Positions 13,366 through 60,788 of a stretch of DNA of 64,000 nt are shown here, piece after piece. Below the pieces are notes generated by a model that saw only the letters and a list, made by a program, of their open reading frames with translations, was not told the origin of the DNA and ran no database searches. Position 1 is the first letter of the stretch. Each line of letters opens with the position of its first letter. The stretch spans positions 1,236 through 65,235 of the IMG/VR virus record IMGVR_UViG_2974615235_000001; one strand, 5' to 3'. Source of the stretch: a virus (taxonomy: Duplodnaviria; Heunggongvirae; Uroviricota; Caudoviricetes). Position numbers and translations under genes: made by a program.

Positions 13366-14084
13366 TAAACCTTACAGAAGTAATACAATCTCATATTAAC
13401 AAAGCTATGTTTAACCTCAATACTTGTGTTCCTGCTTATATTACTGAGGTGGTGGAAAAAGGGGACTTTATAAAAGAAGTATCTGTTAGAATTGTTAATC
13501 AGAAGTCCTACAAGAGTGGAGAAATATTTGAGAGGAATGAAATTACTAACGTCCCTATTTTATTTCCTTCCAGTTCTGAAGGCATAGTATCGTTCCCTGT
13601 TAAGGTAGGAGATACAGTATTGCTTCTATTTTCTCAAGAAGATGTAGACACGTTCCTGCACGACGGTACTAAAGATAAGCCTCCTCAAAGCTTCCGCAAG
13701 TTCTCTTTAACAGATGCAATAGCAGTCCCTTGTGTCCACCCTACTAACTCAGACATAAAAGCCCACAAGGACAATTTCCAGATAACATTTAACGATTTTA
13801 AGCTGTCTGTAAAGCCCTCTGGGGAGACTTCTCTTGAAACTAATACTAGCGTATCAACTAACGCACAAAACCTCATAGAGAGCGTTACAGGGCGTTATAA
13901 GGTAGATTCTAGTATTACAGAGGTAACTTCTGATACGGTAACTATAGGGAATGGGTCTGTTGATATAGTTCAGTACTTATCTGACCTTACTGAGGAGATT
14001 AGTAATATTACGGTAGGTGGAACTCCAATAGATAATAAAGCTAAATTTACAGAACTTAAAGCCTTAATAGACGAACTCAAGTAG
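13362..14084 (+). CDS. baseplate spike / assembly protein (gpV-like, hypothetical)
   Basis: 240 aa directly upstream of gp25/W-like gene as in P2/Mu-type baseplate clusters. Confidence 0.35.
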   Translation: MINLTEVIQSHINKAMFNLNTCVPAYITEVVEKGDFIKEVSVRIVNQKSYKSGEIFERNEITNVPILFPSSSEGIVSFPVKVGDTVLLLFSQEDVDTFLHDGTKDKPPQSFRKFSLTDAIAVPCVHPTNSDIKAHKDNFQITFNDFKLSVKPSGETSLETNTSVSTNAQNLIESVTGRYKVDSSITEVTSDTVTIGNGSVDIVQYLSDLTEEISNITVGGTPIDNKAKFTELKALIDELK

Positions 14085-17371: not shown

Positions 17372-20300
17372 ATGGCACAATTTGAGATTACAGACTTTCC
17401 AGAAATAGCTACGTTAACAGACGAAGAAAACTTTGTATTCTATGTTAAGAGGATTACGGATGGACAAGATTATAAGATTAAGCTAGGCAACTTTCAAGGG
17501 TTAATTCTTGATACTGTGTCTGGACAAGGTGAAGACTTTATACAACAGATAGTAGACCAATTACTACCTGATATAGAGTCTTCTTTTGAACAAGATTTAG
17601 AAGATCAAGTAGCAGAAGCCATAGCCTCTGAAAGAGTTCAAAGGGAAATTGAACTAAAGATTGATGAAATACTAGGGGAGGATTTTGAGAACCCCTATAC
17701 CACCATTGTTGCTGAAGTTAACTCTGTTATCGACAATGCACGTACTAACAAGAAGTTCTCTAAAGAGATTACTCTAGTAAATAATACGCTTGATGTAGTT
17801 AACAATGAAAAATTACCTGCACTACAAGAGGAACTAGATAACCTAAACAATGTAGTGTTACCGCAAGTTAATGCCACTATTGCTCAAGTAGAATCTGATT
17901 TAGCTACTCTTAATGAGGTAGACTTACCTGAGTTAGATACCTCATTAGAGGCTCTGGATGACTCTCTGACAACATTAAATGATGTAACCCTACCTGCCCT
18001 AGAGGGAAGATTAGCACAAGCTGAGATTGAGTTACAGAACCTCAACGCAGTAGACTTGACAGTATTACAGAATGAGCTAGACCAGATTAATGAAGATTTA
18101 GATACACTTAATAATACTACATTACCTGCACTAGAAGCCACTGTACAAGCCGTACAAGACGATTTAGACAATCTTGACCTTACTGGGTTACAGAATGATT
18201 TAAACGCGGCACAGAGCGATATAGACACTCTCAACAACACTACTATCCCTAATATCAATACTACGTTAGGAGGTCTAAGCACAGACTTAGATAACCTTAA
18301 CAATGTAAAGCTACCTGAGATAGATAGTACCTTAGGTGAGTTAGAGAATAACTTGCTAGACTTATCTGATGAACTTACCCTCTTAGATGAGAATACAGAA
18401 GAACTCAATGAAGCACTGTACATTGTTGAGGATATAAATAGTATCCTTGAGAATAGACAAACTCTTAGAGAGCAACGTAAGTCCTCTAATGTATTGGGGA
18501 GAGATTTAGACAACCTTAACCAAGTGGTGTTACCTAATGTACAAGAAACATTAGAAGCTGCTAGGGTTGACATATCTACTCTTAATAACACAACTATCCC
18601 TTCTTTACAAAACTCTGTAAGAGACACCGCTGCTAGTGTTGACACATTGGGGGATAAGTTCCCTATTACGGAAACAGATATAACTGATGGGGCGATCACT
18701 ACTCCCAAGATTGCGACTAATGCAGTCACAGCTAATGAGATACTGGCAGGAACAATAACCTCTAATGAGATTGCTGCCCTTACTATTATTGGTCAGAATA
18801 TCTTAGGAGAAACAATTTCCGCTGACAAACTAATAGCTAACACAATCACTGCCAATGAGATAGCCTCTGAGACTATCACAGGTAATGAGATTGCAGCTAA
18901 CAGTGTCAACGCGGATAGGCTCGTTGCTAACAGTATTACTGCCGCACAGATAGATGCAGGCACAATTACTGCCAATGAACTTTCTGCTGACAGTGTAGAC
19001 ACCTTACAGTTAGTAACTGATTCCGTGATAGCAGATAAGATTGCATCTAACGCAGTTACAGCAGATAAGATACTAGCAGGGAGTGTTACCACTAATAAAC
19101 TATTCTCAGGGGCGGTCACTACAGATAAACTCTTCGCAGGGGCTGTAACCTCAGAGAAGATAGAGTCTCGGACTATTGTAGCAGAGAATATCCAGCTTGG
19201 TACTCTAACAGGTAATGAGATTGCTGTAAATAGTATTAATGCAGACAGGATTGTGGCTAACAGTATAGGCGCTAATCAGATCGCTGCCAATGCTATCACC
19301 GTAGATGAACTTGCTTCTAATAGTGTAACCTCTGTTAAGATTGTATCTGGCGCTATTACGACTGACAAGATGACAGCTAACACAATTAACGGTGACAGGA
19401 TTACTGCTAACACATTAGACGCATCTAAAATTGTTGCTGAGAGTATATCTGCTAGAGAGATTGCCGCCTTATCTATTACAGGTGATTTAATTAAAGGTAA
19501 TACGATAGAAGGGGATAAACTTGTAGTTAACTCTATCTCTGGTGACAGGATTACTACTAACACTCTCAATGGTAATAAGATTACCGCAGGGACTATCAGC
19601 GCAGACAGACTAGTGGCGAATAGCATCACTTCGGGGCAACTTGCTGCTAATAGTGTCACAGCCAGTGAGATTCAGGCAGGTAGTGTCTCTACAGATAAGA
19701 TGGTAGCCAACAGTATTAACGGTGACAGGATTACTTCTAATACTTTACACGCTGATAAAATCGTAGCAGGGACTATTGGTGCTAGAGAGATTACTGCTAA
19801 TAGCATTACAGCAGGAGAGATAGCGTCTCTTACCATAACAGGTAACGAAATCAAAGGTAATAGCGTTCACGCTGATAAGATCATTGCCAACACGATTGGA
19901 GCTAGAGAGATTACTGCTAATAGTATTACATCTGATGAGATTGCCGCTAACACTATTATAGGTGGCAATATCCTCGGTAATACTATCACAGGTGATAAGA
20001 TTAAGGCTAACCAGATTGATGCTAGTCATATACAAGCAGACGCTGTTGAGGCTGATGCTATCAAAGCGAGGGTTATCACAGGAGACAAGTTAGCCTTTGA
20101 GACTATCACAGGTGATTTGATAGCAGCCAATACATTAACCACTAAGAACCTTGTAGTAAGTGACTTTGAGAATCTTACCTATGGAAGTGACTTTGAAGTG
20201 GCAGAGGAAATTCCTTGGGATTTGTCAGACCCTAGCATTTATGTAGTTAACGCAACCAACATATCTCAAAATGCATTACAATTTGCCTCTGAGGGGAGTG

Positions 20301-21664
20301 GTACTAGAAGCACGAGATTGAACTATAACCCAGAAGCTTCTCCTAATGAGGAGTGGTCATTGGAATATGACTTGTATACCACCAATGATTGGAATGGAAG
20401 TTCAGGTAACAGCAAGTTCAGGTTATCAGATGATCTCACCGGAGATTACTTAGCAGACGACCCTTTTGTGAACACAGGGGGAGGGTGGCTTAAAAGAGAG
20501 CATACTTTTACTTTCTCTAGCCCTGCAAGAGTAAATATCCAAATGTGGGCTAATCACACGACGGGTTTTCTTAGAATTACTAATATTAAACTTAGACGTA
20601 AGAAAGCAGGAAACCTTATAGTAGATGGTACTATCACAGCAACTCAGATAGCCGCCGAAGCGATTACTGCTACTAAGCTTAGTGCTGATGCCATAGATGG
20701 TAAACTCATTACAGGGACAATCCTACGCACTTCTGCAAGTACCTCTGTACCAAGAGTTGTTGTAGGCGACCCTTCCTTTCCTTTGTGGTATGGAACGGGG
20801 AATATTTCTACACAGAACATGGTGTTTGGGTTACTCTCTAACGGTACAGCCTATGCACAGAACCTTGTTATAGAGGATAACTCTGTGTTTAAAGGAAACC
20901 TTGTAGCAGCGAGTGGTACATTAGGAACTATAACTTCTGGAACTATCACAGGTACTACGATAAATGGTAACACTATAACAGGTGGTTCTATATCAGGTGC
21001 AACTATATCAGGTAATACTATTACAGGTGGGACTATAAGTGGTACTACTATTACAGGTACAACCGTTACAGGGGGTTTAATACGGACAGCTTCCTCTGGG
21101 TATAGGACAGAGCTTGACGATGGGACATACATGATATGGTCAGGTACTGGTACTAAGAATGACAGTAATGGTATATTCTGGGTTAAGAAGAATGGTACTG
21201 GTTTTATTAAAGGTGACTTCTTTCAAGGGGAAATTCTTGAAACTAAAACTGCTACGTTCTCTGATACAGCGAGTTCGTCAGGTAGTGCTTCTTTGACACA
21301 CAACTCTGCGGGTAAGGCTGTAACTATTAACACTCTTGGTACTTTAAACCTTGAAATGTCCGGAGACCAAAGAGACCAAGCAGGTAAGCTTCAGATAAGA
21401 GTGAGAGTAAAAAGAGGTAGCACTGTTATAGACAGCTATAACGACTATCCCTCTAATGTGGCATACTTGAATGAACCAGAAGCTAATATAAATAAAACCT
21501 TTTTCCGTTTCAGGTCATCTAATTTCTTTTTTGACACTACAACCTCGACAGGTGATAGAACTTACACCTTAGAGGTAGACTTCATAAACGGAGGGGCATC
21601 AGGGACTGTAGCTGTTCCTAATATAGGCGGTTCTATCAAAACCGAAGAAAACAAACTTGCATAG
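17372..21664 (+). CDS. long tail fiber protein (repeat-rich)
   Basis: 1430 aa; about 21-aa LDxLNNxxLP repeats, then about 40 copies of an 11-aa (A/G)N(S/T)ITxxxIxA repeat, then C-terminal TI(T/S)G heptad-like repeats. Confidence 0.7.
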   Translation: MAQFEITDFPEIATLTDEENFVFYVKRITDGQDYKIKLGNFQGLILDTVSGQGEDFIQQIVDQLLPDIESSFEQDLEDQVAEAIASERVQREIELKIDEILGEDFENPYTTIVAEVNSVIDNARTNKKFSKEITLVNNTLDVVNNEKLPALQEELDNLNNVVLPQVNATIAQVESDLATLNEVDLPELDTSLEALDDSLTTLNDVTLPALEGRLAQAEIELQNLNAVDLTVLQNELDQINEDLDTLNNTTLPALEATVQAVQDDLDNLDLTGLQNDLNAAQSDIDTLNNTTIPNINTTLGGLSTDLDNLNNVKLPEIDSTLGELENNLLDLSDELTLLDENTEELNEALYIVEDINSILENRQTLREQRKSSNVLGRDLDNLNQVVLPNVQETLEAARVDISTLNNTTIPSLQNSVRDTAASVDTLGDKFPITETDITDGAITTPKIATNAVTANEILAGTITSNEIAALTIIGQNILGETISADKLIANTITANEIASETITGNEIAANSVNADRLVANSITAAQIDAGTITANELSADSVDTLQLVTDSVIADKIASNAVTADKILAGSVTTNKLFSGAVTTDKLFAGAVTSEKIESRTIVAENIQLGTLTGNEIAVNSINADRIVANSIGANQIAANAITVDELASNSVTSVKIVSGAITTDKMTANTINGDRITANTLDASKIVAESISAREIAALSITGDLIKGNTIEGDKLVVNSISGDRITTNTLNGNKITAGTISADRLVANSITSGQLAANSVTASEIQAGSVSTDKMVANSINGDRITSNTLHADKIVAGTIGAREITANSITAGEIASLTITGNEIKGNSVHADKIIANTIGAREITANSITSDEIAANTIIGGNILGNTITGDKIKANQIDASHIQADAVEADAIKARVITGDKLAFETITGDLIAANTLTTKNLVVSDFENLTYGSDFEVAEEIPWDLSDPSIYVVNATNISQNALQFASEGSGTRSTRLNYNPEASPNEEWSLEYDLYTTNDWNGSSGNSKFRLSDDLTGDYLADDPFVNTGGGWLKREHTFTFSSPARVNIQMWANHTTGFLRITNIKLRRKKAGNLIVDGTITATQIAAEAITATKLSADAIDGKLITGTILRTSASTSVPRVVVGDPSFPLWYGTGNISTQNMVFGLLSNGTAYAQNLVIEDNSVFKGNLVAASGTLGTITSGTITGTTINGNTITGGSISGATISGNTITGGTISGTTITGTTVTGGLIRTASSGYRTELDDGTYMIWSGTGTKNDSNGIFWVKKNGTGFIKGDFFQGEILETKTATFSDTASSSGSASLTHNSAGKAVTINTLGTLNLEMSGDQRDQAGKLQIRVRVKRGSTVIDSYNDYPSNVAYLNEPEANINKTFFRFRSSNFFFDTTTSTGDRTYTLEVDFINGGASGTVAVPNIGGSIKTEENKLA

Positions 21665-24513: not shown

Positions 24514-24963
24514 ATGAAAGCCTTTATCGTAGATGATGACCCTATTACATTAACACTGGTTGCATTTATGCTTAATGAGGAGGGAGTAGAGACGCAGTAT
24601 TGTCTCTCTCCTGTTCCAGACAACCTCTATAAGGATATAGAGGAATTTCACCCTGACGTAATTATACTAGATATTTACTTAGAAAACGAAAGTGGTTTTG
24701 AAGTAGCTAAGAAGATACGTCAGAGTGAGAAGTTAAAAGATACACCTATTGTAGCTATATCAGGATCACATTCCGTAGAGGATAAACTACAAGCCTTTGT
24801 AACAGGGTTCATTGACTATATCCCTAAACCTTTCACTAAAGATGAGATACTCCAAACAGTGCGTAAATATGGTTACTCTAGTGAGATACTCAGATTGTGT
24901 GAAAGAATTAATAAAAGGGAGGAACTAGATCGTGAGTTATATTTTAAGTTTGATAAAGAATAG
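24514..24963 (+). CDS. stand-alone response-regulator receiver (CheY-like REC) domain protein
   Basis: 149 aa; complete REC signature: DDD (7-9), phospho-acceptor Asp in VIILDIY, Ser in AISGS, Lys in IPKPF; no output domain. Confidence 0.65.
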   Translation: MKAFIVDDDPITLTLVAFMLNEEGVETQYCLSPVPDNLYKDIEEFHPDVIILDIYLENESGFEVAKKIRQSEKLKDTPIVAISGSHSVEDKLQAFVTGFIDYIPKPFTKDEILQTVRKYGYSSEILRLCERINKREELDRELYFKFDKE

Positions 24964-25342
24964 GAAACTAGTTATAGGGATTGTTGTTGTAGGATTGCTA
25001 GGTATTAGTGCTTACTTAGGTTGGAATAGGTTAGAATCATCTATCTACCAAGAGGGTTACAGTGCTGCTGTAATAGAATACCAAGGTAAGCTACAAAAGG
25101 CCCAAAAGGAATATAATAGGGAAATTGAATATAAGCTTACACAACAAAGAACCTTACTCGCTCAGAGACATAAGAATGAGATGCGTAGGTTAGAAGCCGA
25201 ATCCGTGGTAGATAAAGAGGTTCAAACTGTCACAGAATACATAGAGGAAAAGATTTATGTTAAAGAAGAGTGCGATATTGTTCCTCCTGATCTTAACAGG
25301 ATGTTCAACAACTCCATCGACTCCATCAACGGAAGTAAATAA
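24932..25342 (+). CDS. i-spanin (Rz-like)
   Basis: 136 aa; N-terminal TM (LVIGIVVVGLLGISAYLGW) then charged coiled-coil periplasmic domain; the o-spanin is embedded in another frame. Confidence 0.6.
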   Translation: MSYILSLIKNRKLVIGIVVVGLLGISAYLGWNRLESSIYQEGYSAAVIEYQGKLQKAQKEYNREIEYKLTQQRTLLAQRHKNEMRRLEAESVVDKEVQTVTEYIEEKIYVKEECDIVPPDLNRMFNNSIDSINGSK

Positions 25343-25556
25343 GATTGATGAGAAGCTCCTAGAAGCCCCTATAAGCCCTTCTTTGTTAGTACCCTGTAGG
25401 GTAGCTTACCCTTTAAAGAGATATGCCTCTGAAGGCTCTCTCAGAGAGTTCTACGAGGTGTCTATATACAATCTAGGTCAGGTTAATAAATGCTACAATA
25501 AAGATGAGGCTTTAATAGAGGAAGTCAAGGAGAGGGATAATGTGGGGAAAGATTAA
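25257..25556 (+). CDS. o-spanin (Rz1-like outer-membrane lipoprotein)
   Basis: 99 aa; signal peptide plus lipobox LILTG|C; Pro/Ser/Thr-rich; starts inside the i-spanin gene in the +1 frame. Confidence 0.65.
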   Translation: MLKKSAILFLLILTGCSTTPSTPSTEVNKIDEKLLEAPISPSLLVPCRVAYPLKRYASEGSLREFYEVSIYNLGQVNKCYNKDEALIEEVKERDNVGKD

Positions 25557-27000: not shown

Positions 27001-27066
27001 CCCTCATAAGAGCCTCTGTAAAGCTCTCTCAGAAGAGTTCTCCTAAAAGATGATACATTGTATAGC
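27001..27066. repeat. intergenic repeat element, copy A
   Basis: ccctcataagagcctctgtaaagctctctcagaagagttctcc ... cattgtatagc; shares core with elements at 30511, 37976, 44109 and 61900. Confidence 0.55.
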
Positions 27067-27077: not shown

Positions 27078-27112
27078 AGCCCCTCAGATTGCTCTGTAGG
27101 GGCTATTTTTAT
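27078..27112. terminator. bidirectional rho-independent terminator between convergent modules
   Basis: agcccct (27078-84) / aggggct (27098-104) stem followed by atttttattta; A-run upstream serves the opposite strand. Confidence 0.6.
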
Positions 27113-30248: not shown

Positions 30249-30497
30249 TTATTCCTCCTCGTAACAACATTGGACAGATACATCACGGTACACTACGTAA
30301 GACCCCTTATACAAACCTTTAATCCTCCTTATACAAGAACGACTGGCCTTGTGCTTATGTCGGTTTGAAAGTCCTGTAAGGATATAATCACATGTCGTAC
30401 TAAAAACTCCTTTTGACAATTCACGAATAATAATTAAAACCATTCCAAATAATATTACACCAAAGATCAAACTAATTACTATTAAATTCTTATCCAT
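30249..30497 (-). CDS. small membrane protein
   Basis: 82 aa; N-terminal TM; RBS GGAGG. Confidence 0.4.
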   Translation of the reverse strand: MDKNLIVISLIFGVILFGMVLIIIRELSKGVFSTTCDYILTGLSNRHKHKASRSCIRRIKGLYKGSYVVYRDVSVQCCYEEE

Positions 30498-30510
30498 AAT
30501 TCCTCCTGTA

Positions 30511-30597
30511 CCGCCCTCTAAGAGCTTATCTATTGCATACCTACCCTACCGTACCTCTTTATAGAGAACTCTATTGAGAGAGCTTCTGAGGGTGTTT
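30511..30597. repeat. intergenic repeat element, copy E (inverted-repeat arms ccctctaagagctt / gagagcttctgaggg)
   Basis: Shares the agctctctc-aga-agttctc and ccctc(t/a)taagagc submotifs with other copies. Confidence 0.5.
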
Positions 30598-37975: not shown

Positions 37976-38068
37976 TTTATATCTCCTATTTGCTCCTGTA
38001 AAGCTCTCTCGGAGGACTTCTCACCTCTCCCTATACAATCACCTTACTTAATGTTTAAACCTCTTAAA
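37976..38068 (-). repeat. intergenic repeat element, copy B (about 85 nt upstream element with TAAGGTGATTGTATAGGGAGAGG core)
   Basis: Minus-strand reading ggtttaaacattaagTAAGGTGATTGTATAGGGAGAGGtgagaagtcctccgagagagctttacaggagcaaataggagatataaaATG; roughly 75% identical to copy D (not computed). Confidence 0.6.
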
Positions 38069-38075
38069 ATGACTC

Positions 38076-43689: not shown

Positions 43690-43817
43690 TAGTGTTCTCC
43701 TCTTGTTATGTGCCTATATCATCACATTACCTCTGATATTACCTTTAATGTTCTCATATAGACACACTACGTTGTATACAAAAATAGAGGGAAGGAAAAG
43801 CTCCCTCCCTCTTTAGA

Positions 43818-44108: not shown

Positions 44109-44232
44109 ATTTACTCTCCTTATAATTCTCTTTGTAAAGCCCTCTAAGAAGACTTCTCTGTAAAGGTATACAATGCCTTTAATTTAGTGAGAAGTCCTCT
44201 CAGGATGGCGTATGCTTCGTTATATGACGTTA
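44109..44232 (-). repeat. intergenic repeat element, copy C
   Basis: Minus-strand aaggcattgtatacc...gagaagtcttcttagagggctttacaaagag; also gagaagtcctctcagg on the plus strand at 44187-44205. Confidence 0.5.
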
Positions 44233-54127: not shown

Positions 54128-54221
54128 TTCTAAGAGGACGTAATTCTTACCAATACCGTTGTATACTTAAAGGGTAGATCTCTTGTTATAGTGGCTTACA
54201 GGGCGTTATACGGCCACCTAA

Positions 54222-54970: not shown

Positions 54971-55043
54971 ATTACCGCCTAAGATTGTTTATTACGGAAG
55001 TCTACACCGCTAGATGGCTTCCATTTTCGATAACTTGTGATAT

Positions 55044-55072
55044 ACTATACACAGACATTAAGATGATGTCAA
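55044..55072 (-). promoter_or_regulatory. sigma70-type promoter for minus-strand early/replication operon (TTGACA-N17-TATAGT)
   Basis: Plus-strand tgtcaa 55067-72 and actata 55044-49 read as a consensus -35 and near-consensus -10 on the minus strand. Confidence 0.45.
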
Positions 55073-55301
55073 CAAGGGAATTCAAATAAAATGAAAATAG
55101 TAAATAATACATCGCATCAGGGAACAATCTTAAAAGATTTCCTTGACACAGAGTACGAATGTAGTTTAGAGTTATTCCACATTATCTTATTCCTGTCGAA
55201 GTTCTATGACTTTGTTATTGATGATGGGAATGTGGTAGTGTGTGATAAAGAGTAAATCTCTTATTAATACAGATACTTAATGTTAATTGTTAAAATAACA
55301 G

Positions 55302-55329
55302 TTGCATTTGAAAATAACTATGTTATAAT
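55302..55329 (+). promoter_or_regulatory. strong sigma70-type promoter (TTGCAT-N16-TGtTATAAT extended -10)
   Basis: ttgcat 55302-07, tataat 55324-29 with TG at 55321-22; about 20 nt upstream of the RBS of the HTH gene. Confidence 0.55.
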
Positions 55330-55349
55330 ATATACACGAGGTAGGAAAA

Positions 55350-55589
55350 ATGAACAACTACTTAGATAAGCTTAAAGAAAGCTTGATAGACCAAATGGTG
55401 AAAGCTATGAAAGAGAATAATATCTCAGCATACAGGGCAGCTAAAGAAAGTAATGTTAACCCTGCATACATGAGCATACTTCTAAACAAAAAATCGAATG
55501 CCACTTTAGACCGAATAATTACAATAGCGGAGGCTATAGGACTTAAAGTAGATGATATTATTTTTAGATTAGAGGTTGACAACAAGTAA
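55350..55589 (+). CDS. XRE/Cro-like helix-turn-helix transcriptional regulator
   Basis: 79 aa; HTH-like segment ISAYRAAKESNVNPAYMSILLN; first gene of the + strand early region; RBS GAGGTAGG. Confidence 0.5.
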   Translation: MNNYLDKLKESLIDQMVKAMKENNISAYRAAKESNVNPAYMSILLNKKSNATLDRIITIAEAIGLKVDDIIFRLEVDNK

Positions 55590-55599
55590 TCTATATGCT

Positions 55600-55715
55600 T
55601 TAATGTAAGAAATACCTATTGTTGTAAGGAAATGTGCGGTTTTACTCTACCCTAAATCGCAATACAAGTAATAAACAAAAGGGTGTAAGAAATACTCCTT
55701 ACAACAATACAATTA
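55600..55715. repeat. direct repeat GTAAGAAATAC (x2) plus inverted repeat tattgttgtaagg / ccttacaacaata
   Basis: 55606-16 and 55686-96 direct copies; 55616-28 versus 55699-711 inverted; in the 450-bp non-coding region after the HTH gene. Confidence 0.5.
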
Positions 55716-55840
55716 TACTTCGTCTTTGACCAGACGCTCCATCATACGTAATACTAGCCAGTGTTAGGCAAAAGTATGAGATAAACAGTGAATAACGGGT
55801 GATATAAAAACTCCTACGATTTTGGTAGGCTCTATCCCAA

Positions 55841-55995
55841 GGTGATAGTTTCCTTCTAAGGATGAAACCTTAGCAAACAACCACTGATAAAGAGTGTAAT
55901 TGTTACTAACAGTCTTGTACTGTAATCGTATGATGTTACCATGATAGTGATAGTTCTAAAGGGACAATCTTTTAAAGGTGTCTCTCCTATCACCC
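55841..55995. repeat. GTGATAGTT motif repeats (two direct including tandem gatagtgatag, one inverted ctatcacc)
   Basis: 55842-50, 55942-55, inverted at 55988-95; operator-like arrangement upstream of the 56042 gene. Confidence 0.4.
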
Positions 55996-56041
55996 TAATG
56001 GTCTTGATACAGATCCGTCTAAAATTTGAGGAGGAGTCATA

Positions 56042-56467
56042 ATGAAAACAATTAAGACAACTGCAAGCGTGTCTATGGGCAGGAACAGTAATAATGAGTT
56101 TTACATACATGTAGAGGATGAACACTCTGGCAATAAAATAGTTTCTCTATCAATGGATGAGAAGGATTTTGCATTTCTTATTACAGGATTGCATGGGGTT
56201 AAGACTGACTGCATTTTACACAACGTCACTAATGTAGGTAAGAAAAGGGTAATTGAACGGGTGTCTATGCCTGAACCTGACGCTTTTGATAAGGGAAGCG
56301 TCAAAATGGCTGTGAGGGAACACTTTGAAAGGGAATATGAGGCTGAAGGTTGGAAACTTTGGGATGATGGTACGAGTAGTCAACAAAATTCGAGGGGACT
56401 TCATAACTTTATTGTAGTTAAATACGTACCTGTAGAAGATGATGTAGTGGTAGAAAAGTATTACTAA
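56042..56467 (+). CDS. hypothetical early protein
   Basis: 141 aa; strong RBS GAGGAGG. Confidence 0.4.
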   Translation: MKTIKTTASVSMGRNSNNEFYIHVEDEHSGNKIVSLSMDEKDFAFLITGLHGVKTDCILHNVTNVGKKRVIERVSMPEPDAFDKGSVKMAVREHFEREYEAEGWKLWDDGTSSQQNSRGLHNFIVVKYVPVEDDVVVEKYY

Positions 56468-56498
56468 TTACTAGACTGTGAAGGATAAGGAGAATATA

Positions 56499-56807
56499 AT
56501 GAATGACTTTACCCCAGACAAAAATGATATTACTAAAGTAAATGGTATGGATAGGCACGTAGTATGTGCAGCTAATAAGTTTCCTTGTGGTACAATTATA
56601 TGTGGTGCTAGGCATTGGGATGAAATTATGTGTACAGTGGCAGACAAACTAGGGTTAGACGGTGGCAAAGAGGAACAGGGTTTTATAGACCAATGGCAAA
56701 ACTTTATTACAAGAGAGGATGCCACTAAGATTGTTCTTGCTAATGAACAGTGTTTAAGGGAGACACCTTTAGAAGGTGATATTCTCTTTAGTGAGAATTT
56801 ATATTAA
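56499..56807 (+). CDS. hypothetical early protein (Cys-containing)
   Basis: 102 aa from ATG 56499 with AAGGAG RBS; the track ORF starts at an upstream GTG without RBS. Confidence 0.4.
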   Translation: MNDFTPDKNDITKVNGMDRHVVCAANKFPCGTIICGARHWDEIMCTVADKLGLDGGKEEQGFIDQWQNFITREDATKIVLANEQCLRETPLEGDILFSENLY

Positions 56808-56815
56808 AATACCCC

Positions 56816-56844
56816 TTGACATAACTATTTACTACACATAAACT
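56816..56844 (+). promoter_or_regulatory. sigma70-like promoter TTGACA-N17-TAAACT
   Basis: ttgaca 56816-21; taaact 56839-44; upstream of the 56875 gene. Confidence 0.4.
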
Positions 56845-56874
56845 AAGACGACATTAACAAAGAGGAGAAACATT

Positions 56875-57447
56875 ATGAAAAACGGTAAGTATAGATTGAA
56901 AGATGACAATGGTGTAGAAATCGAAGTAGAGAATTACGTTGCTTCTTTCACAAAGGTAGGGGGTCTCCTATTTTGGCATGTAGGGGAGAAGATTACTGTG
57001 GACCATTTAGATGAAAACTCTTGGGAACGTATCCCTGATGAATCACCTACATTCAAGAAGGGTGATAGGGTAAAAAGAAAAGATGGTACAAACTTTAGTA
57101 ATGGGGGTTATGTAGTCACTGTAGATGATGTTACAGATGAGTCTCGGATATGGCTTAAAGAAACAGCTACAGTTATTGACCACCAATCTTTAGAACTAGT
57201 TCAGATTTCCTCTGAACAACCTACCCCTACCCCACACAAGTATGCTGATGTAATCAAAGCTTGGGCAGATGGGTATGAGGTGCAGAGTTTTAATTGTGGT
57301 AAGTGGAATGACGTAAATTACCCTACATTCAACCCTGATCTAGAATGGCGTATCAAACCAGACAACCCTAACCAAGATAGAATCCTAGAAATAGAAAACA
57401 CTATCACTGAATTACAAAATGAATTAGAAGAGTTGAAACGCTCTTAG
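56875..57447 (+). CDS. hypothetical early protein
   Basis: 190 aa; RBS AGAGGAG. Confidence 0.4.
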   Translation: MKNGKYRLKDDNGVEIEVENYVASFTKVGGLLFWHVGEKITVDHLDENSWERIPDESPTFKKGDRVKRKDGTNFSNGGYVVTVDDVTDESRIWLKETATVIDHQSLELVQISSEQPTPTPHKYADVIKAWADGYEVQSFNCGKWNDVNYPTFNPDLEWRIKPDNPNQDRILEIENTITELQNELEELKRS

Positions 57448-57453
57448 AAGATT

Positions 57454-57502
57454 GCACCCTTGCCTGAGATAATGGTAAGGGTGTTTTTTTTTTTTTTTTT
57501 TT
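57454..57502 (+). terminator. rho-independent terminator with T19 tract
   Basis: gcacccttgcc / ggtaagggtg stem (one G.U position) followed by 19 consecutive T (57484-57502). Confidence 0.65.
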
Positions 57503-57510
57503 AATAGTAG

Positions 57511-57539
57511 TTGACATCATTAGAATGACAGTCTAGTAT
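57511..57539 (+). promoter_or_regulatory. sigma70-like promoter TTGACA-N17-TAGTAT
   Basis: ttgaca 57511-16; tagtat 57534-39; directly after the terminator, upstream of the 57572 gene. Confidence 0.5.
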
Positions 57540-57571
57540 TACAACCATCAAACAAAGAGAAGGGATAAATT

Positions 57572-58075
57572 ATGAGTTATACTGACAAGTGTTGTGGTGT
57601 TTGTAACGAATACCAAGATATATATGAAACAGGTAAGTTAGAAGTCTCAAAAACATTAGGATGGGTGTCTCCCGAGTATAAGAGGTTCTACGACACAAAA
57701 ACCAATGTTTGTGTGAAATGCATCAAAGATAAGGCACTAGATGGTGTAAATGTAAAAGATTTAAGGTTACATGTCTGGTACAATGAGCCTGAGAATATTA
57801 CTAAAGGTAGCACAATGTTTGTTAATCCTGATACAGGGAAATGGTGGTCTTGCCCTAATAATAGATTACTTAAAGACGAACAAAATTTATGCGATAAAAA
57901 ACTCAAGTACAGTAAAGCTAACCCCTACCTCTATTTTATTACAGGGGTTAATTTAATCAAACATGAAAGACTTTTCGGCAAACATAGCGGTATAAATTCT
58001 TCTGATAAAAGAAGATTAAGAAGAACTTTAAGGAAATTAGGGGTAAAAGGAAGGCTTAAAATGCTTATTGAGTGA
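57572..58075 (+). CDS. hypothetical early protein with N-terminal Cys4 zinc-ribbon and basic C-terminus
   Basis: 167 aa; CCGVCNEY...CVKCIKDK; C-terminal KRRLRRTLRKLGVKGR. Confidence 0.4.
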   Translation: MSYTDKCCGVCNEYQDIYETGKLEVSKTLGWVSPEYKRFYDTKTNVCVKCIKDKALDGVNVKDLRLHVWYNEPENITKGSTMFVNPDTGKWWSCPNNRLLKDEQNLCDKKLKYSKANPYLYFITGVNLIKHERLFGKHSGINSSDKRRLRRTLRKLGVKGRLKMLIE

Positions 58076-58085
58076 GGGATAAATT

Positions 58086-58295
58086 ATGGAACACTTAGAA
58101 TGTGTTATCGAGTTTACCAATAGTGAGAGAGAATGGATTGACCCTGTATTGTATGAGGACATACGTACAGAGAGTGGAGTTCTTATCGTGGAAAGTATGG
58201 TAGGGTACGTATATGAATACCCCTTAAAAGACATTGACAAGTGGTGCATACGTCCTTATAGTGAGGAAACTACTTACGACCCTATAGAGGATTAA
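58086..58295 (+). CDS. hypothetical protein
   Basis: 69 aa, RBS. Confidence 0.35.
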   Translation: MEHLECVIEFTNSEREWIDPVLYEDIRTESGVLIVESMVGYVYEYPLKDIDKWCIRPYSEETTYDPIED

Positions 58296-58298
58296 ATT

Positions 58299-58610
58299 AT
58301 GAAACGTGAGGAATTAGTAAGTGTATTGAAGGCAGCAAAAGTAGAGATCCTTAACGAGAAGGAATTTGGTGAACTTGATGATAACCTAAACCTTATCAGA
58401 GACCTATACTTTAAAGTGGGAGATATAGAGTACTACATTAATTGGTTTCACAATCTTATGAAGCTTTACACCGTAGGTACAACAGGGTTCACCGTATTCA
58501 CTAGAATAGAACATTCTGGTACATGGCCTAACAATTTTAAGCGTAACCTTCAGATGTATTACAATAAGGATTGTGTTTGTGTGATAGGACTAGAGAGGTA
58601 TCCAGTATGA
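58299..58610 (+). CDS. hypothetical protein
   Basis: 103 aa, RBS AGAGGA. Confidence 0.35.
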   Translation: MKREELVSVLKAAKVEILNEKEFGELDDNLNLIRDLYFKVGDIEYYINWFHNLMKLYTVGTTGFTVFTRIEHSGTWPNNFKRNLQMYYNKDCVCVIGLERYPV

Positions 58611-58915
58611 GCGAACAACTAGATTTATTTTCTTCTTATGAATGTGATCCTAGAGGTGCTACTGGTATTAAAATCTGGAGTAGGAATAGTGAGGAAGAAC
58701 TCCCCGATTTGTACTGTGGTATTACAGGAATTAAAGGACAGTATGTAGGGTTCTATGTCATTAATGGGGATTGGGATGGTAGATTAGACCTAGCTAATAA
58801 AACTATGACAATTTTTCATCCTTGGTACGAGGATACTGTGCAGTCTTACCACAAATATGAATTTATTTACGATAAAATTGAAGAAGTTCTTGACATAGAT
58901 GAAATCCCTTACTAA
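58607..58915 (+). CDS. hypothetical protein (start at ATG 58607, ATGA overlap with upstream stop)
   Basis: 102 aa from the RBS-supported internal ATG of track ORF 58571..58915. Confidence 0.35.
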   Translation: MSEQLDLFSSYECDPRGATGIKIWSRNSEEELPDLYCGITGIKGQYVGFYVINGDWDGRLDLANKTMTIFHPWYEDTVQSYHKYEFIYDKIEEVLDIDEIPY

Positions 58916-58918
58916 AAT
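58890..58918 (+). promoter_or_regulatory. sigma70-like promoter TTGACA-N17-TAAAAT
   Basis: ttgaca 58890-95; taaaat 58913-18; within the 3' end of the preceding ORF, upstream of the 58983 gene. Confidence 0.45.
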
Positions 58919-58982
58919 ACACATATTCAATAAGAAATCACATTGAACAATGTTACAATTATTAATCACAGGAGAAACAATT

Positions 58983-59600
58983 ATGAAAATTAACACACTA
59001 GATTACGTACGCACTGAAGCTTTCACTGTTGATGAGTTGAAAGAGCTGGAGAGTTTAGTTCTCTCTCAAGGGTATAACTTAACAGATGAAGTGAACAGTA
59101 ATTATGTAGAGAACTGGCTTGAATATGGAGTGGACGACGACGGTTTTGCTATTTTCTGGGGCAGAAAATTTTCTCAAGTGTGGGAAGGCAATGACATCAC
59201 AGACCAATTCCGTAACTACTTAGACAATGACAAAGGTGTAGTTGCAGAAGAGGAATCTTCTAAGAATAAGCCCTTCACAAAGGACAATTTGAAAGATGGG
59301 ATGGTTGTTAATTTTAGGGATACAGATTTCAAGGAAGGGGTAGTTTTTAGGGAACGTATCTTTGCCACTGATAAATCTCCCTACTCTAGAATCTCTTCTG
59401 GAGGAATAACTCAATTAGAGGAGTTACTTGATAACTTAAAACATGATAGTTACCCTGAGTACGACATTATGAAAGTATCCTACATGGATGAAGTTCTGTG
59501 GGAACGTGTAGAAGAAACTCCTGAACAAAAACGTATCAAAGAACTAGAGAAGATTATCTCTGACGCTCAGAAAGAGTTAGAAAGTCTTAGTGAAGAGTAA
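58983..59600 (+). CDS. hypothetical early protein
   Basis: 205 aa from ATG 58983 with AGGAG RBS (track start 58950 lies in the predicted 5' UTR). Confidence 0.4.
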   Translation: MKINTLDYVRTEAFTVDELKELESLVLSQGYNLTDEVNSNYVENWLEYGVDDDGFAIFWGRKFSQVWEGNDITDQFRNYLDNDKGVVAEEESSKNKPFTKDNLKDGMVVNFRDTDFKEGVVFRERIFATDKSPYSRISSGGITQLEELLDNLKHDSYPEYDIMKVSYMDEVLWERVEETPEQKRIKELEKIISDAQKELESLSEE

Positions 59601-59925
59601 TTTCTGGAGAGGATACAGAAAAGGGTGGTACAAAGGGTTTGTACTAGGAACACTCTATACAACTATTCTTTACACAATAGTTGTTATCTACTGGACAAAC
59701 TTACAAGGATTGTTCTTCTAAAATTAGAATGCCTATTATAGCCTCTCAGACACGTTCTGAGGGGTTTTCTTGTATATGCTAGTATGATTGTATACCTTAA
59801 AATTAAATCCTCTTAAAATGGCTTACAGGAGCTTACACTGAATATAGATAAGTATACACAAATGACACTAAAATAGATAAAAAGCGTAGACATAAGAATA
59901 ATTTCAAAATAATTGAAAATAATGT

Positions 59926-59953
59926 TTGACAGGGAGTTATTCTTTTGTAATAC
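59926..59953 (+). promoter_or_regulatory. sigma70-like promoter TTGACA-N16-TGTAATAC
   Basis: ttgaca 59926-31; taatac 59948-53 preceded by TG. Confidence 0.35.
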
Positions 59954-59984
59954 TTATCCCATCGAAACAGAGGAGACATAGATT

Positions 59985-60146
59985 ATGACTTTTTTATTAA
60001 TTTCAATTCCAACAGTTTTTGTACTATTCTTTGTGGTATCTTACAAAATAGTAAGCGACTACGAGAAAGAGAAATCTGTAGACGAGGAAATTATTAGAAA
60101 GTTAAGAGAAGAAACGTCACAACTACTCACGATAGAGGAAAAATAA
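59985..60146 (+). CDS. small membrane protein (53 aa; below track cutoff)
   Basis: ATG 59985 with AGGAG RBS at 59970-74; hydrophobic N-terminus FLLISIPTVFVLFFVV; first of three tightly coupled mini-genes. Confidence 0.35.
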   Translation: MTFLLISIPTVFVLFFVVSYKIVSDYEKEKSVDEEIIRKLREETSQLLTIEEK

Positions 60147-60147
60147 C

Positions 60148-60324
60148 ATGACAATTGCACAACAGATAATTTTGAATAGCAACTATGTAGCACAGGTTAA
60201 GTTTAAGGCAGGTATTCTTTGTAAGTCGTGTGACCTTAGTAACCTAAAATCTTGGTATTATTTTGAGGATGAAAGCTTTATTGAGGTAGAAAATGGAGAA
60301 GTAACGATAGGAGATAGTGAATAA
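60148..60324 (+). CDS. small protein (58 aa; below track cutoff)
   Basis: ATG 1 nt after the upstream stop; contains CKSC pair. Confidence 0.3.
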   Translation: MTIAQQIILNSNYVAQVKFKAGILCKSCDLSNLKSWYYFEDESFIEVENGEVTIGDSE

Positions 60325-60500
60325 TGAATATTGCAGAGACAATTGTAAAGAAAGCTAACGGAGATACAAATTCTGTCATGGAGTTGTCTAATAAACATGC
60401 TGTTGACAGAGAACAAGACTTTGCACAAGAGAAAACTTATTATTTCTTTGTTGACAATAGCGGAATCATTGTCCATAATGATCTTGTTGAAACATTTTAG
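60324..60500 (+). CDS. small protein (58 aa; below track cutoff)
   Basis: TAATG overlap with the upstream stop; ends TAG 60498-500 just before the RBS of the next gene. Confidence 0.3.
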   Translation: MNIAETIVKKANGDTNSVMELSNKHAVDREQDFAQEKTYYFFVDNSGIIVHNDLVETF

Positions 60501-60509
60501 GAGAAGATT

Positions 60510-60788
60510 ATGATTGATATTAGATCTATGACGAATGAAGAATTTAAACAGTTTACTAAGGGCAAGTTTTTTAGTGCTAAATTTATTAAGAAGGACGGGT
60601 CTCTAAGAGAATATAAAGGTGCTAGGGTAGAGGTTACTAAAGATAGTAAGTTCACAGTGCACAATAATGTAGAGCATAAGAAGAACCTTGTCAGTGTATA
60701 CGTCCCTAATGAGAAACGTCCTAGGGCGACTCTTAATTTAGAGACTGTTAAGGAACTGACTTTCCAAGGGAAAACTTATAAGTATTAA
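60510..60788 (+). CDS. hypothetical protein
   Basis: 92 aa; RBS AGGAGAAG. Confidence 0.4.
   Translation: MIDIRSMTNEEFKQFTKGKFFSAKFIKKDGSLREYKGARVEVTKDSKFTVHNNVEHKKNLVSVYVPNEKRPRATLNLETVKELTFQGKTYKY

Follow-up and report, generated by a model that had tools for sequence, protein, structure and literature searches.

Among the closest described systems are cassettes found in T4-type phages and called PeSL, for promoter-early stem-loop (Arbiol et al. 2010, PMC2839356; Comeau et al. 2014, PMC4122927). These are dispersed intergenic composites with about 100 bp of conserved sequence, made of a stem-loop terminator and a promoter region, and they end in the Shine-Dalgarno (SD) sequence and start codon of the next gene. 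Their promoters are strong and sigma-70-like, with a -35 TTGACA and a -10 TATAAT at a spacing of 16-18 bp and an AT-rich upstream region. PeSL copies can recombine with one another, which yields mini-circles. In the middle and late promoters of phage phiEco32, a single AATGTA element centred at -11.5 is read by the phage sigma factor gp36 (PMC12276001). Symmetric bidirectional bacterial promoters were reported by Warman et al. 2021; as summarised in PMC10268837, 18 bp separate the start sites in their commonest form and -7T pairs reciprocally with -11A, and the divergent RNAs are often antisense and non-coding. In such promoters, the divergent start sites are 7-25 bp from each other.

The DNA analysed here (the window) is a stretch of 64,000 nt with 100% identity to Alteromonas phage vB_AmeM_PT11-V22 (V22), the type phage of a marine genus and, unlike the PeSL carriers, not a T4-type phage. 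No promoters and no ncRNAs are reported in the published description of its genome. The V22 cassettes share with the PeSLs the dispersed composite layout, and in both, small ORFs are inserted, deleted or replaced between close relatives. However, they have no -35 and only a -10-like centre, they include two dyad boxes 55 bp apart and a purine-rich leader, dyad symmetry is seen in several units, and two copies are intragenic. They resemble the PeSLs but are not members of that family.

The likeness to phiEco32 lies in the short ATTGTA/AATGTA element, in the lack of a canonical -35 and in what would be a promoter class set apart from the sigma-70 early promoters. In contrast to phiEco32, there is no gp36 homologue among the V22 proteins, the motif is one base off in most copies and dyad boxes flank it. 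As in the symmetric promoters summarised in PMC10268837, -10-like hexamers of opposite strands share base pairs (in V22, TACAAT overlaps TATAnn), and antisense, non-coding RNAs are predicted for the V22 cassettes. Compared with the commonest form in that summary, the better pair of V22 hexamers (TATAnn with TACAAT) would set the start sites about 23 bp apart, and the units form a sequence family with extended conserved arms, unlike isolated symmetric -10 elements.

The cassette family in V22

The sites are genuine copies of a cassette of approximately 75-100 bases, which is present at least nine times in V22 and is kept in close relatives. The family, its statistics and geometry, its conservation and the gene swaps beside it were observed directly. 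A preliminary description of the window had joined at least five intergenic sites into one family through three shared submotifs. The sites at 27.0, 38.0, 44.1 and 61.9 kb (sites 1, 3, 4 and 5) are strong members and the one at 30.5 kb (site 2) is a partial member, while four copies, at about 13.8, 25.4, 54.1 and 59.8 kb, had been overlooked. Every string quoted in that description was found in its place and the non-uniform orientation of the copies was correctly noticed. The statement that all copies are intergenic was wrong, with two of them located within coding sequence (ORF19 and an unannotated 99-aa ORF). The copies, together with the hairpin beside site 1, are as follows:

13801 to 13891, no strand assigned: 13.8 kb copy, inside baseplate gene ORF19; 3 mismatches; HMM 18.5 and 17.9 bits
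25425 to 25499, minus strand: 25.4 kb copy, inside an unannotated, evidently coding 99-aa ORF (25257-25556, plus strand); HMM 20.1 bits
27016 to 27092, minus strand: site 1, full unit; HMM 33.4 bits (minus strand) and 13.4 bits (plus strand)
27080 to 27112, both strands: terminator hairpin by site 1, AGCCCCTCAGATTGCTCTGTAGGGGCT, with T-runs on either strand
30504 to 30597, minus strand: site 2, partial member with both arms and a degenerate centre, GGTATGCAAT; E 0.18
37988 to 38072, minus strand: site 3, full unit co-oriented with downstream ORF51; HMM 59.7 bits
44133 to 44208, minus strand: site 4, full unit, double-armed with dyad symmetry, in the orientation of ORF62; HMM 45.6 bits
54127 to 54202, plus strand: 54.1 kb copy, between ORF80 and ORF79 (both on the minus strand); HMM 35.7 bits; symmetry z 2.4
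59753 to 59835, plus strand: 59.8 kb copy, behind a strong terminator (59740-59766); HMM 52.0 bits
61916 to 61991, plus strand: site 5, full unit co-oriented with ORF98 (lipoprotein-like, 86 aa); HMM 53.6 bits

The three submotifs differ in their statistics. Submotif 2, GTAAAGCTCTCTCRGARGASTTCTC, is clearly non-random, with four matches at three or fewer mismatches (window 13809, 27018, 37998 and 44134) against 0.00 expected. Submotif 1, CCCTCWTAAGAGC, is one variant of a short CTnAGAG box and is not enriched when taken alone (4 vs 2.9 expected). The loose pattern of submotif 3, SATTGTATAG, is also not enriched (13 matches vs 11.4 expected at one mismatch or fewer), but six of the 13 fall within the composite sites. 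TTGTATA is enriched in intergenic DNA, where 12 of its 32 copies lie against 3.3 expected (p = 4.5e-5). The longest inverted repeat of the window is formed by sites 3 and 5 (98 nt, 81%).

An HMM trained solely on the copies of the relatives was run on V22, with 40 dinucleotide shuffles as control. Eight V22 copies score above the best shuffle (10.2 bits), at record positions 39307-39223, 63151-63226, 60988-61070, 45443-45368, 55362-55437, 28327-28251, 26734-26660 and 15117-15036.

The upstream part of the cassette is a CTnAGRG box, often provided by the 3′ (descending) arm of the terminator hairpin of the preceding gene. The centre is A-TGTAT, and the opposite strand reads TACAAT; TGTAT is invariant in 16 copies from at least four genomes, and an A is almost always present two bases before it. 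In detail, one strand of the centre carries TG followed by TATAGG, TATACC, TATCAT or TATACT, with TACAAT on the other strand, and most copies have ATTGTA as the central motif, with AATGTA in site 1. The second box, CTnAGAG, sits inside GAAGTCCTCTnAGAGRGCTTTACAGRAG. The upstream box is placed at -29 to -31 from the centre in 13 of 17 copies and the downstream box at +24 to +27 in 11 of 17, and the spacing from box to box is exactly 55 bp in all seven copies which have both. The cassette ends in an SD and an ATG, 61-65 nt from the centre (61, 63 and 65 nt in sites 5, 3 and 4, respectively). Core, SD and ATG are not always found on the same side of the centre: their position is forward for sites 3, 4 and 5, and reverse for the 54.1 kb copy, L007 2099 and L007 5031. 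Dyad symmetry of the whole unit is significant in five loci (sites 1 and 4, the 54.1 kb copy, B_5014 and B_2102) and absent in four; sites 3 and 5 are without significant symmetry, as is the 59.8 kb copy. In all, 80% of cells retain the CTCT-N3-AGAG dyad, and some compensatory change is seen.

Site 1 is located at the convergent junction of late ORF35 (plus strand) and NAPRT ORF36 (minus strand), with no downstream gene either way. Its centre is the palindrome ATACATTGTAT (27052-27064), its strong core GGAGAACTCTTCTGAGAGAGCTTTACAGAGG is on the minus strand and its boxes, at -29 and +26, are spaced by 55. The upstream box, CTGAGGG, is the 3′ arm (minus strand) of the AGCCCCTCAGATTGCTCTGTAGGGGCT hairpin, which has a terminator-like call at 27091-27103 and a minus-strand fold of -42.2 kcal/mol (z -4.2). 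Site 2, which is 83% complementary to site 1, has the inverted core CAGAAGCTCTCTCAATAGAGTTCTC and the gene-proximal core AAGCTCTTAGAGGGCGGTACAGGAGG, and after the latter comes the ATG of a membrane ORF of 82 aa that is unannotated (30249-30497, minus strand).

In site 3, TTGTATA is at 38038-38032 and the ATG of ORF51 lies 63 nt from the centre. Site 4 contains TTGTATAC at 44173-44166, a strong core on the minus strand and the mirrored core GAGAAGTCCTCTCAGG on the plus strand (44189-44205); 21 of 38 mirrored pairs agree with the dyad (z 3.6), the boxes are at -30 and +25 and the distance from the centre to the ORF62 ATG is 65 nt. In site 5, the hairpin ACCCTCAGAGCTATTCTAAGAGGGT followed by T's (61905-61937) precedes TTGTATA (61949-61955), the boxes are at -29 and +26 and the ATG is at 62010, 61 nt from the centre.

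The 54.1 kb copy has GTTGTATAC on the plus strand (54158-54166), and the core, SD and ATG of ORF79 are on the opposite side of the centre, on the minus strand. In the 59.8 kb copy, TTGTATA is found in tandem at 59770 and 59788 with the diverged core TCCTCTTAAAATGGCTTACAGGAGC, and a consensus sigma-70 promoter and ORF92 follow. The 25.4 kb copy has ATTGTATAT on the minus strand and thus TACAAT on the plus strand, about 68 nt before the ATG of ORF32.

Within ORF19, the strong core GAGAAGTCTCCCCAGAGGGCTTTACAG of the 13.8 kb copy is antisense (13809-13835), the centre reads GCGTATC and the arm on the sense strand, CCTCATAGAGAGCGTTACAGG, is weaker. Among four genomes, the invariance of third codon positions is 0.5-0.67 at this copy vs 0-0.25 in most other ORF19 windows, and the block directly beside it also reaches 0.4-0.58. 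These values indicate synonymous-site conservation of the ORF19 copy, i.e., selection on the DNA, and a copy under such constraint would be a clear case of a regulatory signal overlapping a structural gene.

Copies of the cassette also flank a 1.6 kb non-coding, iteron-rich region (record 69366-70986).

Distribution in relatives and gene replacement

Judged from database comparisons, the cassette family is specific to the V22 clade. Among 50,697 cultured phage records, no copy was found outside V22, and the strict core pattern had 0 matches in IMG/VR. Relatives at about 67% DNA polymerase identity have no family member and no analogous repeat. L003, a relative anchored on NAPRT, is without the element and shows no collinearity with V22, and ORF96 as an anchor for finding relatives gave no yield.

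In the relatives, most copies are orthologously placed, and their divergence roughly keeps pace with that of the surrounding sequence. For instance, orthologues of site 2 and of the 25.4 kb copy are found in L025 at 20955 and 17109, that of the 54.1 kb copy in L006 at 3441 and that of the 59.8 kb copy in L046 at 934. The site 1 block is kept in L025 though both flanking genes differ. Some copies are non-orthologous among relatives (e.g., L007 5014/5031 and 13094, L008 2615/2642), and one full copy is present in contigs L037 and L044, without detectable V22 protein similarity within the locus.

Such copies, together with the many dispersed units, some of them intragenic, and the inverted arms around a short centre at five loci, could be taken as signs of small non-autonomous mobile palindromes, MITE-like and comparable to the Correia elements of Neisseria, which would have spread through the genome and have incidental promoter-like ends. 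This is quite improbable, given the orthologous position of most copies and their divergence in step with the surroundings, the lack of an evident transposase and the lack of significant whole-unit symmetry in sites 3 and 5 and the 59.8 kb copy. Since the arms are built from a short box which is itself palindromic, inverted repeats may appear without mobility.

The first gene behind the orthologues of sites 3, 4 and 5 differs among V22, contig A and contig B; in the orthologues, the start codon is 50-63 nt from TTGTATA, and one insertion junction falls exactly at the start codon. The genes inserted in contig A behind orthologous cassettes are small acidic ORFs, in which sequence reading alone revealed no obvious endonuclease motifs. 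The insertion of different genes right behind orthologous copies points to recombination at the cassettes, and with approximately 100 bp conserved between copies, these may serve as homology patches for the insertion or replacement of small genes.

Homing sites usually lie within a conserved gene that is interrupted or flanked by the endonuclease gene. The preliminary description had placed the copies often next to HNH genes and had proposed them as targets or recombination sites of homing endonucleases. Adjacency was found for site 2 only, which directly abuts the HNH/Srd-like ORF40; for all the others, the nearest HNH gene is 1.3 kb away or more. The gene content of relatives does differ right at the cassettes, as it would if these were recognition, cleavage or recombination targets of phage HNH/HTH homing endonucleases, and in the comparison with relatives suggested there, genes were indeed swapped behind orthologous copies, but nothing ties the swaps to HNH enzymes. 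A dispersed family of nine copies is atypical of homing sites and the inserted ORFs of contig A, as read, are without endonuclease motifs. The proposed homing role is unsupported, and we give it hardly any credence.

Putative role in transcription

The three roles proposed in the preliminary description were a phage-specific promoter or operator, RNA processing or termination, and the homing target treated above. The promoter/operator role fits best because of the fixed geometry, the invariant -10-like centre, the conservation in relatives and the lack of a conserved RNA fold; the post-terminator position and the SD/ATG distance agree with it. On the best reading, the cassette would be a phage-specific, -35-less, partly bidirectional promoter/operator with a conserved leader, where promoter activity, direction and factor are what we infer from sequence.

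Sites 1 and 5 and the 59.8 kb copy each have a strong terminator directly before them; adjacency to terminators had been noted before and is true of several copies. Genes downstream of such terminators need a promoter within the cassette. The centre would act as a -10-like promoter element without a -35 hexamer, and the upstream box near -41 and the downstream box near +15 would be suitably positioned for an activator and an operator. From this combination, host RNA polymerase is expected to need a phage factor in order to use the element. Within the non-early gene clusters, the cassette would start transcription anew after a terminator and give a conserved leader and ribosome-binding site to whichever gene follows. 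Double-armed copies would probably fire both ways, and copies in or beside late genes may give antisense RNA. Taken as a whole, the proposal that these are composite regulatory cassettes of the V22 clade, which restart transcription behind terminators, supply the leader and RBS and double as swap patches, has in our estimate a little less than an even chance of being right.

The early region contains many promoters of the form TTGACA-N17-TAnnnT. Consensus scans for sigma-70 promoters skip the cassettes, calling there only a TTTACA-N17-TAAAAT that overlaps the start codon of ORF51, and in the sequence read directly there is no TTGACA-like hexamer 16-18 bp from either -10 candidate. By-eye comparison with the LexA, IHF, sigma-54, sigma-E and sigma-28 consensus gave only a LexA-like TTGT-N8-ACAG in site 4, which the other copies do not share.

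Several features stand against the promoter reading. The -10 candidates on the sense strand, TATAGG and TATACC, are without the conserved -7 T, and a better hexamer, TACAAT, is on the opposite strand in sites 3, 4 and 5. Core, SD and ATG occur on either side of the centre, and three copies face into late genes or are without a downstream gene. The similarity of sites 3 and 5 is largely a recent duplication, so their shared distance to the ATG is not independent evidence.

Mixed polarity would suit an orientation-independent element, such as cassettes which act as RNA, i.e., as orientation-free palindromes forming RNase III/E processing hairpins, mRNA stabilisers or terminators in polycistronic transcripts. 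On each strand of site 4, the two arms pair in a helix of 15 bp (z -3.2 and -2.9), the minus-strand fold of site 1 is also unusually stable (z -4.2) and genuine terminator hairpins are included in several copies. On the contrary, the stability of sites 2, 3 and 5 and of the 25.4 kb copy is like that of shuffles (z -0.1 to -1.5), and RNAalifold over 16 copies gave 0 consensus pairs. Only 45% of cells pair in the proposed long helices, a figure that does not exceed that of shuffled or slid controls, and covariation is absent; the most conserved columns (TGTAT) would fall in a loop, and Rfam gave no matches at gathering score. A conserved RNA structure was rejected, as no consensus fold or covariation was detected and only a 4-bp dyad is kept. 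An RNA-level function is improbable, and what holds of the earlier suggestion of RNA processing or termination is that real terminators abut some copies and give one of the boxes.

The units could instead be binding sites for a dimeric phage or host protein with a mainly non-initiation role (repressor or roadblock, genome organisation, recombination or replication accessory), the dyad boxes 55 bp apart being the recognition sites. This would agree with the exact spacing of the boxes, the CTCT-N3-AGAG dyad kept in 80% of cells and the significant whole-unit symmetry of sites 1 and 4, the 54.1 kb copy, B_5014 and B_2102. Nucleotide-level selection on the copies in coding sequence, the iteron-rich region (record 69366-70986) flanked by copies and the PHROG transcriptional-regulator family of ORF62, behind site 4, are also in its favour. 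We consider it doubtful, for it leaves unexplained the constant SD/ATG distance, the conserved purine-rich leader and the exact post-terminator placement; moreover, it overlaps with the operator part of the promoter/operator model and is not exclusive of it.

To return to the promoter/operator reading, a more specific form of it is rather unlikely. According to this, the cassettes would be an undescribed class of -35-less promoters, dyad-flanked and often bidirectional, which host RNA polymerase reads only with a phage specificity factor (possibly of the ORF123 family) and which double as recombination linkers for gene cassettes, with functional copies within late genes, such as baseplate ORF19, producing anti-late RNA. 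If it is true that a phage factor reads the units, they would represent a new redirection of host RNA polymerase outside the T4, phiEco32 and T7 paradigms. As ordinary activator-dependent promoters, they would still be a useful annotation, with no surprise. The cassette family provides a testable map of probable non-early transcription units and of sites of small-gene exchange.

Candidate factors and polymerases

A search for a gp36-like sigma factor (phmmer and blastp of phiEco32 gp36 against all 156 V22 proteins) had a best E of 0.3, and this candidate was rejected. ORF123 showed weak matches to sigma region 4, SigE and SigF. Its family comprises 99 proteins in an exhaustive HMMER search, and HTH domains are all that the family profile hits in the PDB. 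The HTH of the family is C-terminal and LuxR-like or sigma region 4-like; sigma region 2 is absent. The AlphaFold model (pLDDT 96, all-helical) gave no Foldseek match better than E = 1. With a C-terminal HTH alone and no fold match in the PDB, ORF123 was rejected as a sigma factor; based on the HTH-only profile matches and the Foldseek result, it is left as a candidate DNA binder. ORF62 matches a PHROG family annotated as transcriptional regulator, and neither ORF62 nor ORF96 had a match among PDB sequences.

The SP6 promoter contains ..TAGGTGACACTATAGAAG.. and the initiation region of T7 is TATAGGGAGA, which we take to be resembled by AAGGTGATTGTATAGGGAGA in sites 3 and 5. In contrast to these systems, V22 encodes no single-subunit RNA polymerase, the PHROG matches of its proteins include no RNA polymerase, and half of the copies read TATACC, not TATAGGG. 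Due to the likeness of the centre to the SP6 and T7 promoters, ORF155 (846 aa), the sole uncharacterised protein above 800 aa, was checked as a phage RNA polymerase and was found to be a PKD/Ig/SASA-esterase protein. The other V22 proteins of more than 500 aa are annotated as tail proteins, DNA polymerase, primase-helicase, tape measure, ribonucleotide reductase, terminase and portal.

The cassette family and its anatomy

At 100% identity, the window matches Alteromonas phage vB_AmeM_PT11-V22 (MN877442 / NC_048847; V22), of the genus Myoalterovirus, whose 92,760-bp genome was examined whole with its annotation. Record coordinates minus 1235 give window coordinates. In the V22 genome paper, tRNAs, ncRNA and other secondary-structure elements are all reported absent and promoters are unmentioned (PMC7289586). 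The ARAGORN and Rfam searches also found nothing.

The preliminary description had proposed a family of repeats at five sites (sites 1–5, at 27.0, 30.5, 38.0, 44.1 and 61.9 kb) sharing three submotifs, and every string that it quoted is present where it was placed. The long submotif, GTAAAGCTCTCTCRGARGASTTCTC, is non-random, with four matches at ≤3 mismatches against 0 expected, including a new copy at 13809 within the baseplate gene ORF19. The third contains TTGTATA, which is enriched between genes (12 of its 32 copies lie there, with 3.3 expected; p = 4.5e-5); as a loose 10-mer this submotif is not over-represented (13 against 11.4 expected), and 6 of the 13 matches lie inside composite sites. 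The first, CCCTCWTAAGAGC, is uninformative: it shows no enrichment alone (4 against 2.9 expected) and is one variant of the short box CTnAGAG. By independent repeat finding, no inverted repeat in the window is longer than the one formed by sites 3 and 5 (98 nt, 81%), and 27003, 37983, 44119 and 13794 group together as direct repeats. In order to avoid circularity, an HMM was trained on copies from related phages only, leaving those of V22 out. It found nine V22 loci, all with scores higher than 10.2 bits, the maximum over 40 dinucleotide shuffles.

V22 loci found by the relatives-only HMM
~38.0 kb (site 3): 59.7 bits
~61.9 kb (site 5): 53.6 bits
~59.8 kb: 52.0 bits
~44.2 kb (site 4): 45.6 bits
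~54.1 kb: 35.7 bits
~27.1 kb (site 1): 33.4 bits
~25.5 kb: 20.1 bits
~13.8 kb: 18.5 bits
record ~70.1 kb, beyond the window: 15.5 bits

On the basis of the submotif counts, the repeat finding and the HMM scores against shuffles, the family is real, non-random and larger than first described. Four window copies (13.8, 25.4, 54.1 and 59.8 kb) had been overlooked, and site 2 is a partial member only, with both arms present and a degenerate centre.

The unit was oriented on its central heptamer, (A/T)TGTAT(A/C), and box positions were counted over 17 copies. An upstream CTnAGRG box is centred 29–31 bp before the heptamer in 13 of the 17, and a downstream CTnAGAG box 24–27 bp past it in 11. Under a strict definition, box-to-box spacing is exactly 55 bp in all seven copies with both boxes. 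The downstream box is enclosed by GAAGTCCTCTnAGAGRGCTTTACAGRAG, which in sites 3, 4 and 5 leads on into a Shine-Dalgarno (SD) sequence, with heptamer-to-ATG distances of 63, 65 and 61 nt, respectively. A terminator hairpin often supplies the upstream box through its descending arm, as at sites 1 and 5 and in the copy at 59.8 kb. In site 3 and its orthologues, CTGAGAGYCATTTTAAGAGGTTTAA is conserved despite a weak hairpin. Sixteen copies (V22, three relatives and one unrelated contig) were aligned: the TGTAT columns are invariant and the A two bases upstream is nearly so. The forward-strand hexamer after TG is TATAGG, TATACC, TATCAT or TATACT, and the opposite strand of the centre reads TACAAT, a good −10 hexamer.

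Between ORF62 and ORF61 (43690–43817, − strand), a strong terminator (43812–43786) is followed directly by the palindrome TTGTATACAA. This region, upstream of the exonuclease gene, lacks a recognisable core and may be related to the cassette, in minimal or decayed form.

Polarity, symmetry and copies within genes

The non-uniform orientation noted previously was borne out. At sites 3, 4 and 5 the gene-proximal core comes after ATTGTATA, whereas at the 54.1 kb copy (ORF79) and two loci of contig B, an IMG/VR relative, core, SD and ATG lie across the centre, after TATACAA(T/C). Whole-unit dyad symmetry is significant for site 1, site 4, the 54.1 kb copy and the contig B copies B_5014 and B_2102 (z 2.4–4.3), the axis of all five lying 2.5–3.5 bp from the central T. 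Sites 3 and 5 and the 59.8 and 25.4 kb copies show no significant symmetry of this kind. Site 1 is located at a convergent gene junction, where neither direction has a downstream gene.

Contrary to the earlier claim, copies are not confined to intergenic positions, two being intragenic: one in ORF19 and one on the antisense strand of a 99-aa ORF (25257–25556, + strand) absent from the GenBank and RefSeq annotation. The ORF overlaps ORF31 at the latter's 3′ end and ORF32 at its start. Most of its differences from positions 16893–17183 of L025, a piece of the relative contig A, are synonymous third-position changes, which makes it very probable that the ORF is coding.

In the case of ORF19, codons of four genomes were aligned and read in 12-codon windows. 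Third-position invariance is 0.5–0.67 across the element (windows starting at codons 138–150) against 0–0.25 in most windows elsewhere. At codons 198–222, amino-acid conservation is at least that of the element and third-position invariance is still within 0–0.25; in the block adjoining the copy (windows starting at codons 162–180) invariance is also 0.4–0.58. This is evidence that selection may act on the DNA sequence itself.

The suggested adjacency to HNH genes, and with it a homing-endonuclease role, found no support, as only site 2 adjoins such a gene, the HNH/Srd-like ORF40. Directly behind site 2 lies an unannotated 82-aa ORF (30249–30497, − strand) with a good SD (GGAGGAATTATG) and a hydrophobic N-terminal segment; L025 has a gene start at the same place. 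Repeats of another kind occur in the tail protein ORF24 (18695–21059, + strand), namely many diverged 30-nt (10-residue) periodic repeats at spacings divisible by 30, along with a 15-nt periodicity over 20928–21059, in a repetitive fibre-like domain.

Relatives and gene exchange

Sites 1, 3, 4 and 5, as well as the copies at 13.8, 25.4, 54.1 and 59.8 kb, have orthologues in three IMG/VR contigs (87–94 kb, DNA polymerase identity 81–88%), which contain further copies elsewhere. At ~67% polymerase identity, relatives lack the family, and their corresponding region contains no analogous repeat. Two contigs of 28–34 kb (L037 and L044) carry a full copy without protein similarity to V22 within the locus. 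Among cultured phages, the element was found in V22 only.

The first gene behind orthologous cassettes differs between phages. At site 3, the gene that follows is the 63-aa ORF51 in V22 and an unrelated 115-aa ORF in contig A, and contig B continues straight into the ORF50 homologue. After site 4, contig A carries an additional 95-aa ORF. At site 5, a 146-aa ORF in contig A separates the ATG of the ORF98 homologue precisely from its codon 2 (2710–3170 of contig A's piece L046), and this insertion leaves the lipoprotein homologue no in-frame ATG, GTG or TTG start. The site 1 block and its terminator are kept in contig A, with different genes on both flanks.

Regulatory reading and known systems

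A sigma-70 consensus scan does not call the cassettes. The region 55000–64000 (+ strand) contains about 10 near-consensus sigma-70 promoters (TTGACA-N17/18-TAnnnT) before small ORFs, and a divergent pair at 55044–55172; it looks like an early region, its promoters contrasting with the cassette class. At ~57478–57500 (+ strand), a terminator hairpin GCACCCTTGCC...GGTAAGGGTG with an unusually long run of 19 T's sits immediately upstream of a consensus sigma-70 promoter.

At 38020–38045 (− strand) and 61942–61967 (+ strand), AAGGTGATTGTATAGGGAGA resembles SP6/T7 promoters, including TATA and then GGGAGA, and half of the other copies have TATACC instead. A phage RNA polymerase promoter was rejected because V22 encodes no such polymerase; its sole large uncharacterised protein, ORF155, is a PKD/Ig/SASA-esterase protein. 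The RNA-processing role proposed earlier fared poorly: RNAalifold predicts no pairs, candidate long helices (45% of cells paired) are no better than shuffled or slid controls, and conservation of pairing is limited to the 4-bp dyad CTCT-N3-AGAG (80%). Folded as single sequences, only sites 1 and 4 reach significance.

Among the roles suggested previously, a phage-specific promoter/operator, here with a conserved leader, is the best-supported reading, as judged from the sequence. Site 5 and the 59.8 kb copy each lie directly behind a strong terminator, so the downstream genes would need a promoter within ~80 nt, a stretch that contains centre and core only. The invariant centre is −10-like and lacks a −35 hexamer. 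With TATAGG/TATACC at −12 to −7, the upstream dyad box would fall at ~−41 and the downstream at ~+15; with TACAAT of the opposite strand, they would fall at ~−37 and ~+18. In both readings the dyad site would thus stand in for the −35 hexamer, which is typical for activator-dependent or sigma-appropriated phage promoters. Bidirectional firing, with late-gene-directed copies giving antisense RNA, would explain the copies pointing into late genes. Confirmation of a bidirectional factor-dependent promoter class by start-site mapping would add interest to the finding, as would anti-late transcription from an intragenic copy, if true.

Several V22 proteins are candidate factors. ORF62, directly behind site 4, matches a PHROG transcriptional regulator family (E = 3e-7), and ORF83 is a Cro/CI-type HTH protein. 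ORF123 (beyond the window, 24707–25522, − strand, of the V22 record piece L002) has a C-terminal HTH of LuxR-like or sigma region 4-like type, whose matches to sigma region 4, SigE and SigF stay below threshold. An exhaustive search gave a family of at least 99 proteins of 220–270 aa, and 25 of 51 members match Sigma70_r4_2. The family profile matches only HTH domains in the PDB, and the AlphaFold model (pLDDT 96) is all-helical, with a 52-residue helix before the HTH. Foldseek found no PDB match to the model with E < 1. On this evidence ORF123 could plausibly bind DNA as a dimer; it cannot be shown to be a sigma factor, and is only a candidate for a role at the cassettes.

A close sequence analogue of the cassette centre, and a further point for the promoter reading, is found in the middle and late promoters of phiEco32, where a single AATGTA element centred at −11.5 is read by the phage sigma factor gp36 (PMC12276001); no homologue of gp36 was found in V22. 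Symmetric bidirectional promoters have been described in bacteria (PMC10268837). The V22 cassettes similarly have overlapping −10-like hexamers on both strands, and their mirrored arms and gene starts on either side of the centre also recall them.

In function and evolutionary behaviour, the closest system is the PeSL cassettes of T4-type phages, repeated ~100 bp intergenic composites of a terminator stem-loop and a promoter, ending in SD/ATG, which mediate insertion, deletion and replacement of small ORFs (PMC2839356, PMC4122927). The V22 units share the composite layout, the SD/ATG end and the small-ORF turnover, but lack the defining strong sigma-70-like promoter. They have in addition a conserved leader and two dyad boxes 55 bp apart, and some units are dyad-symmetric or intragenic. 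They would thus be not PeSLs but a new form of such an element. Novelty is moderate: the family is undescribed, in an understudied marine phage genus, and its kind is known in outline from other phages.

Beyond the window, record 69366–70986 (L002 19366–20986) is a 1.6 kb non-coding region which may be a replication origin. Several short direct repeats in it resemble iterons (GGTGTCAAAAAGGT, AAAGGTATCAT, TAAGAAAGGGTATAT), and a cassette-like copy lies close to each end.
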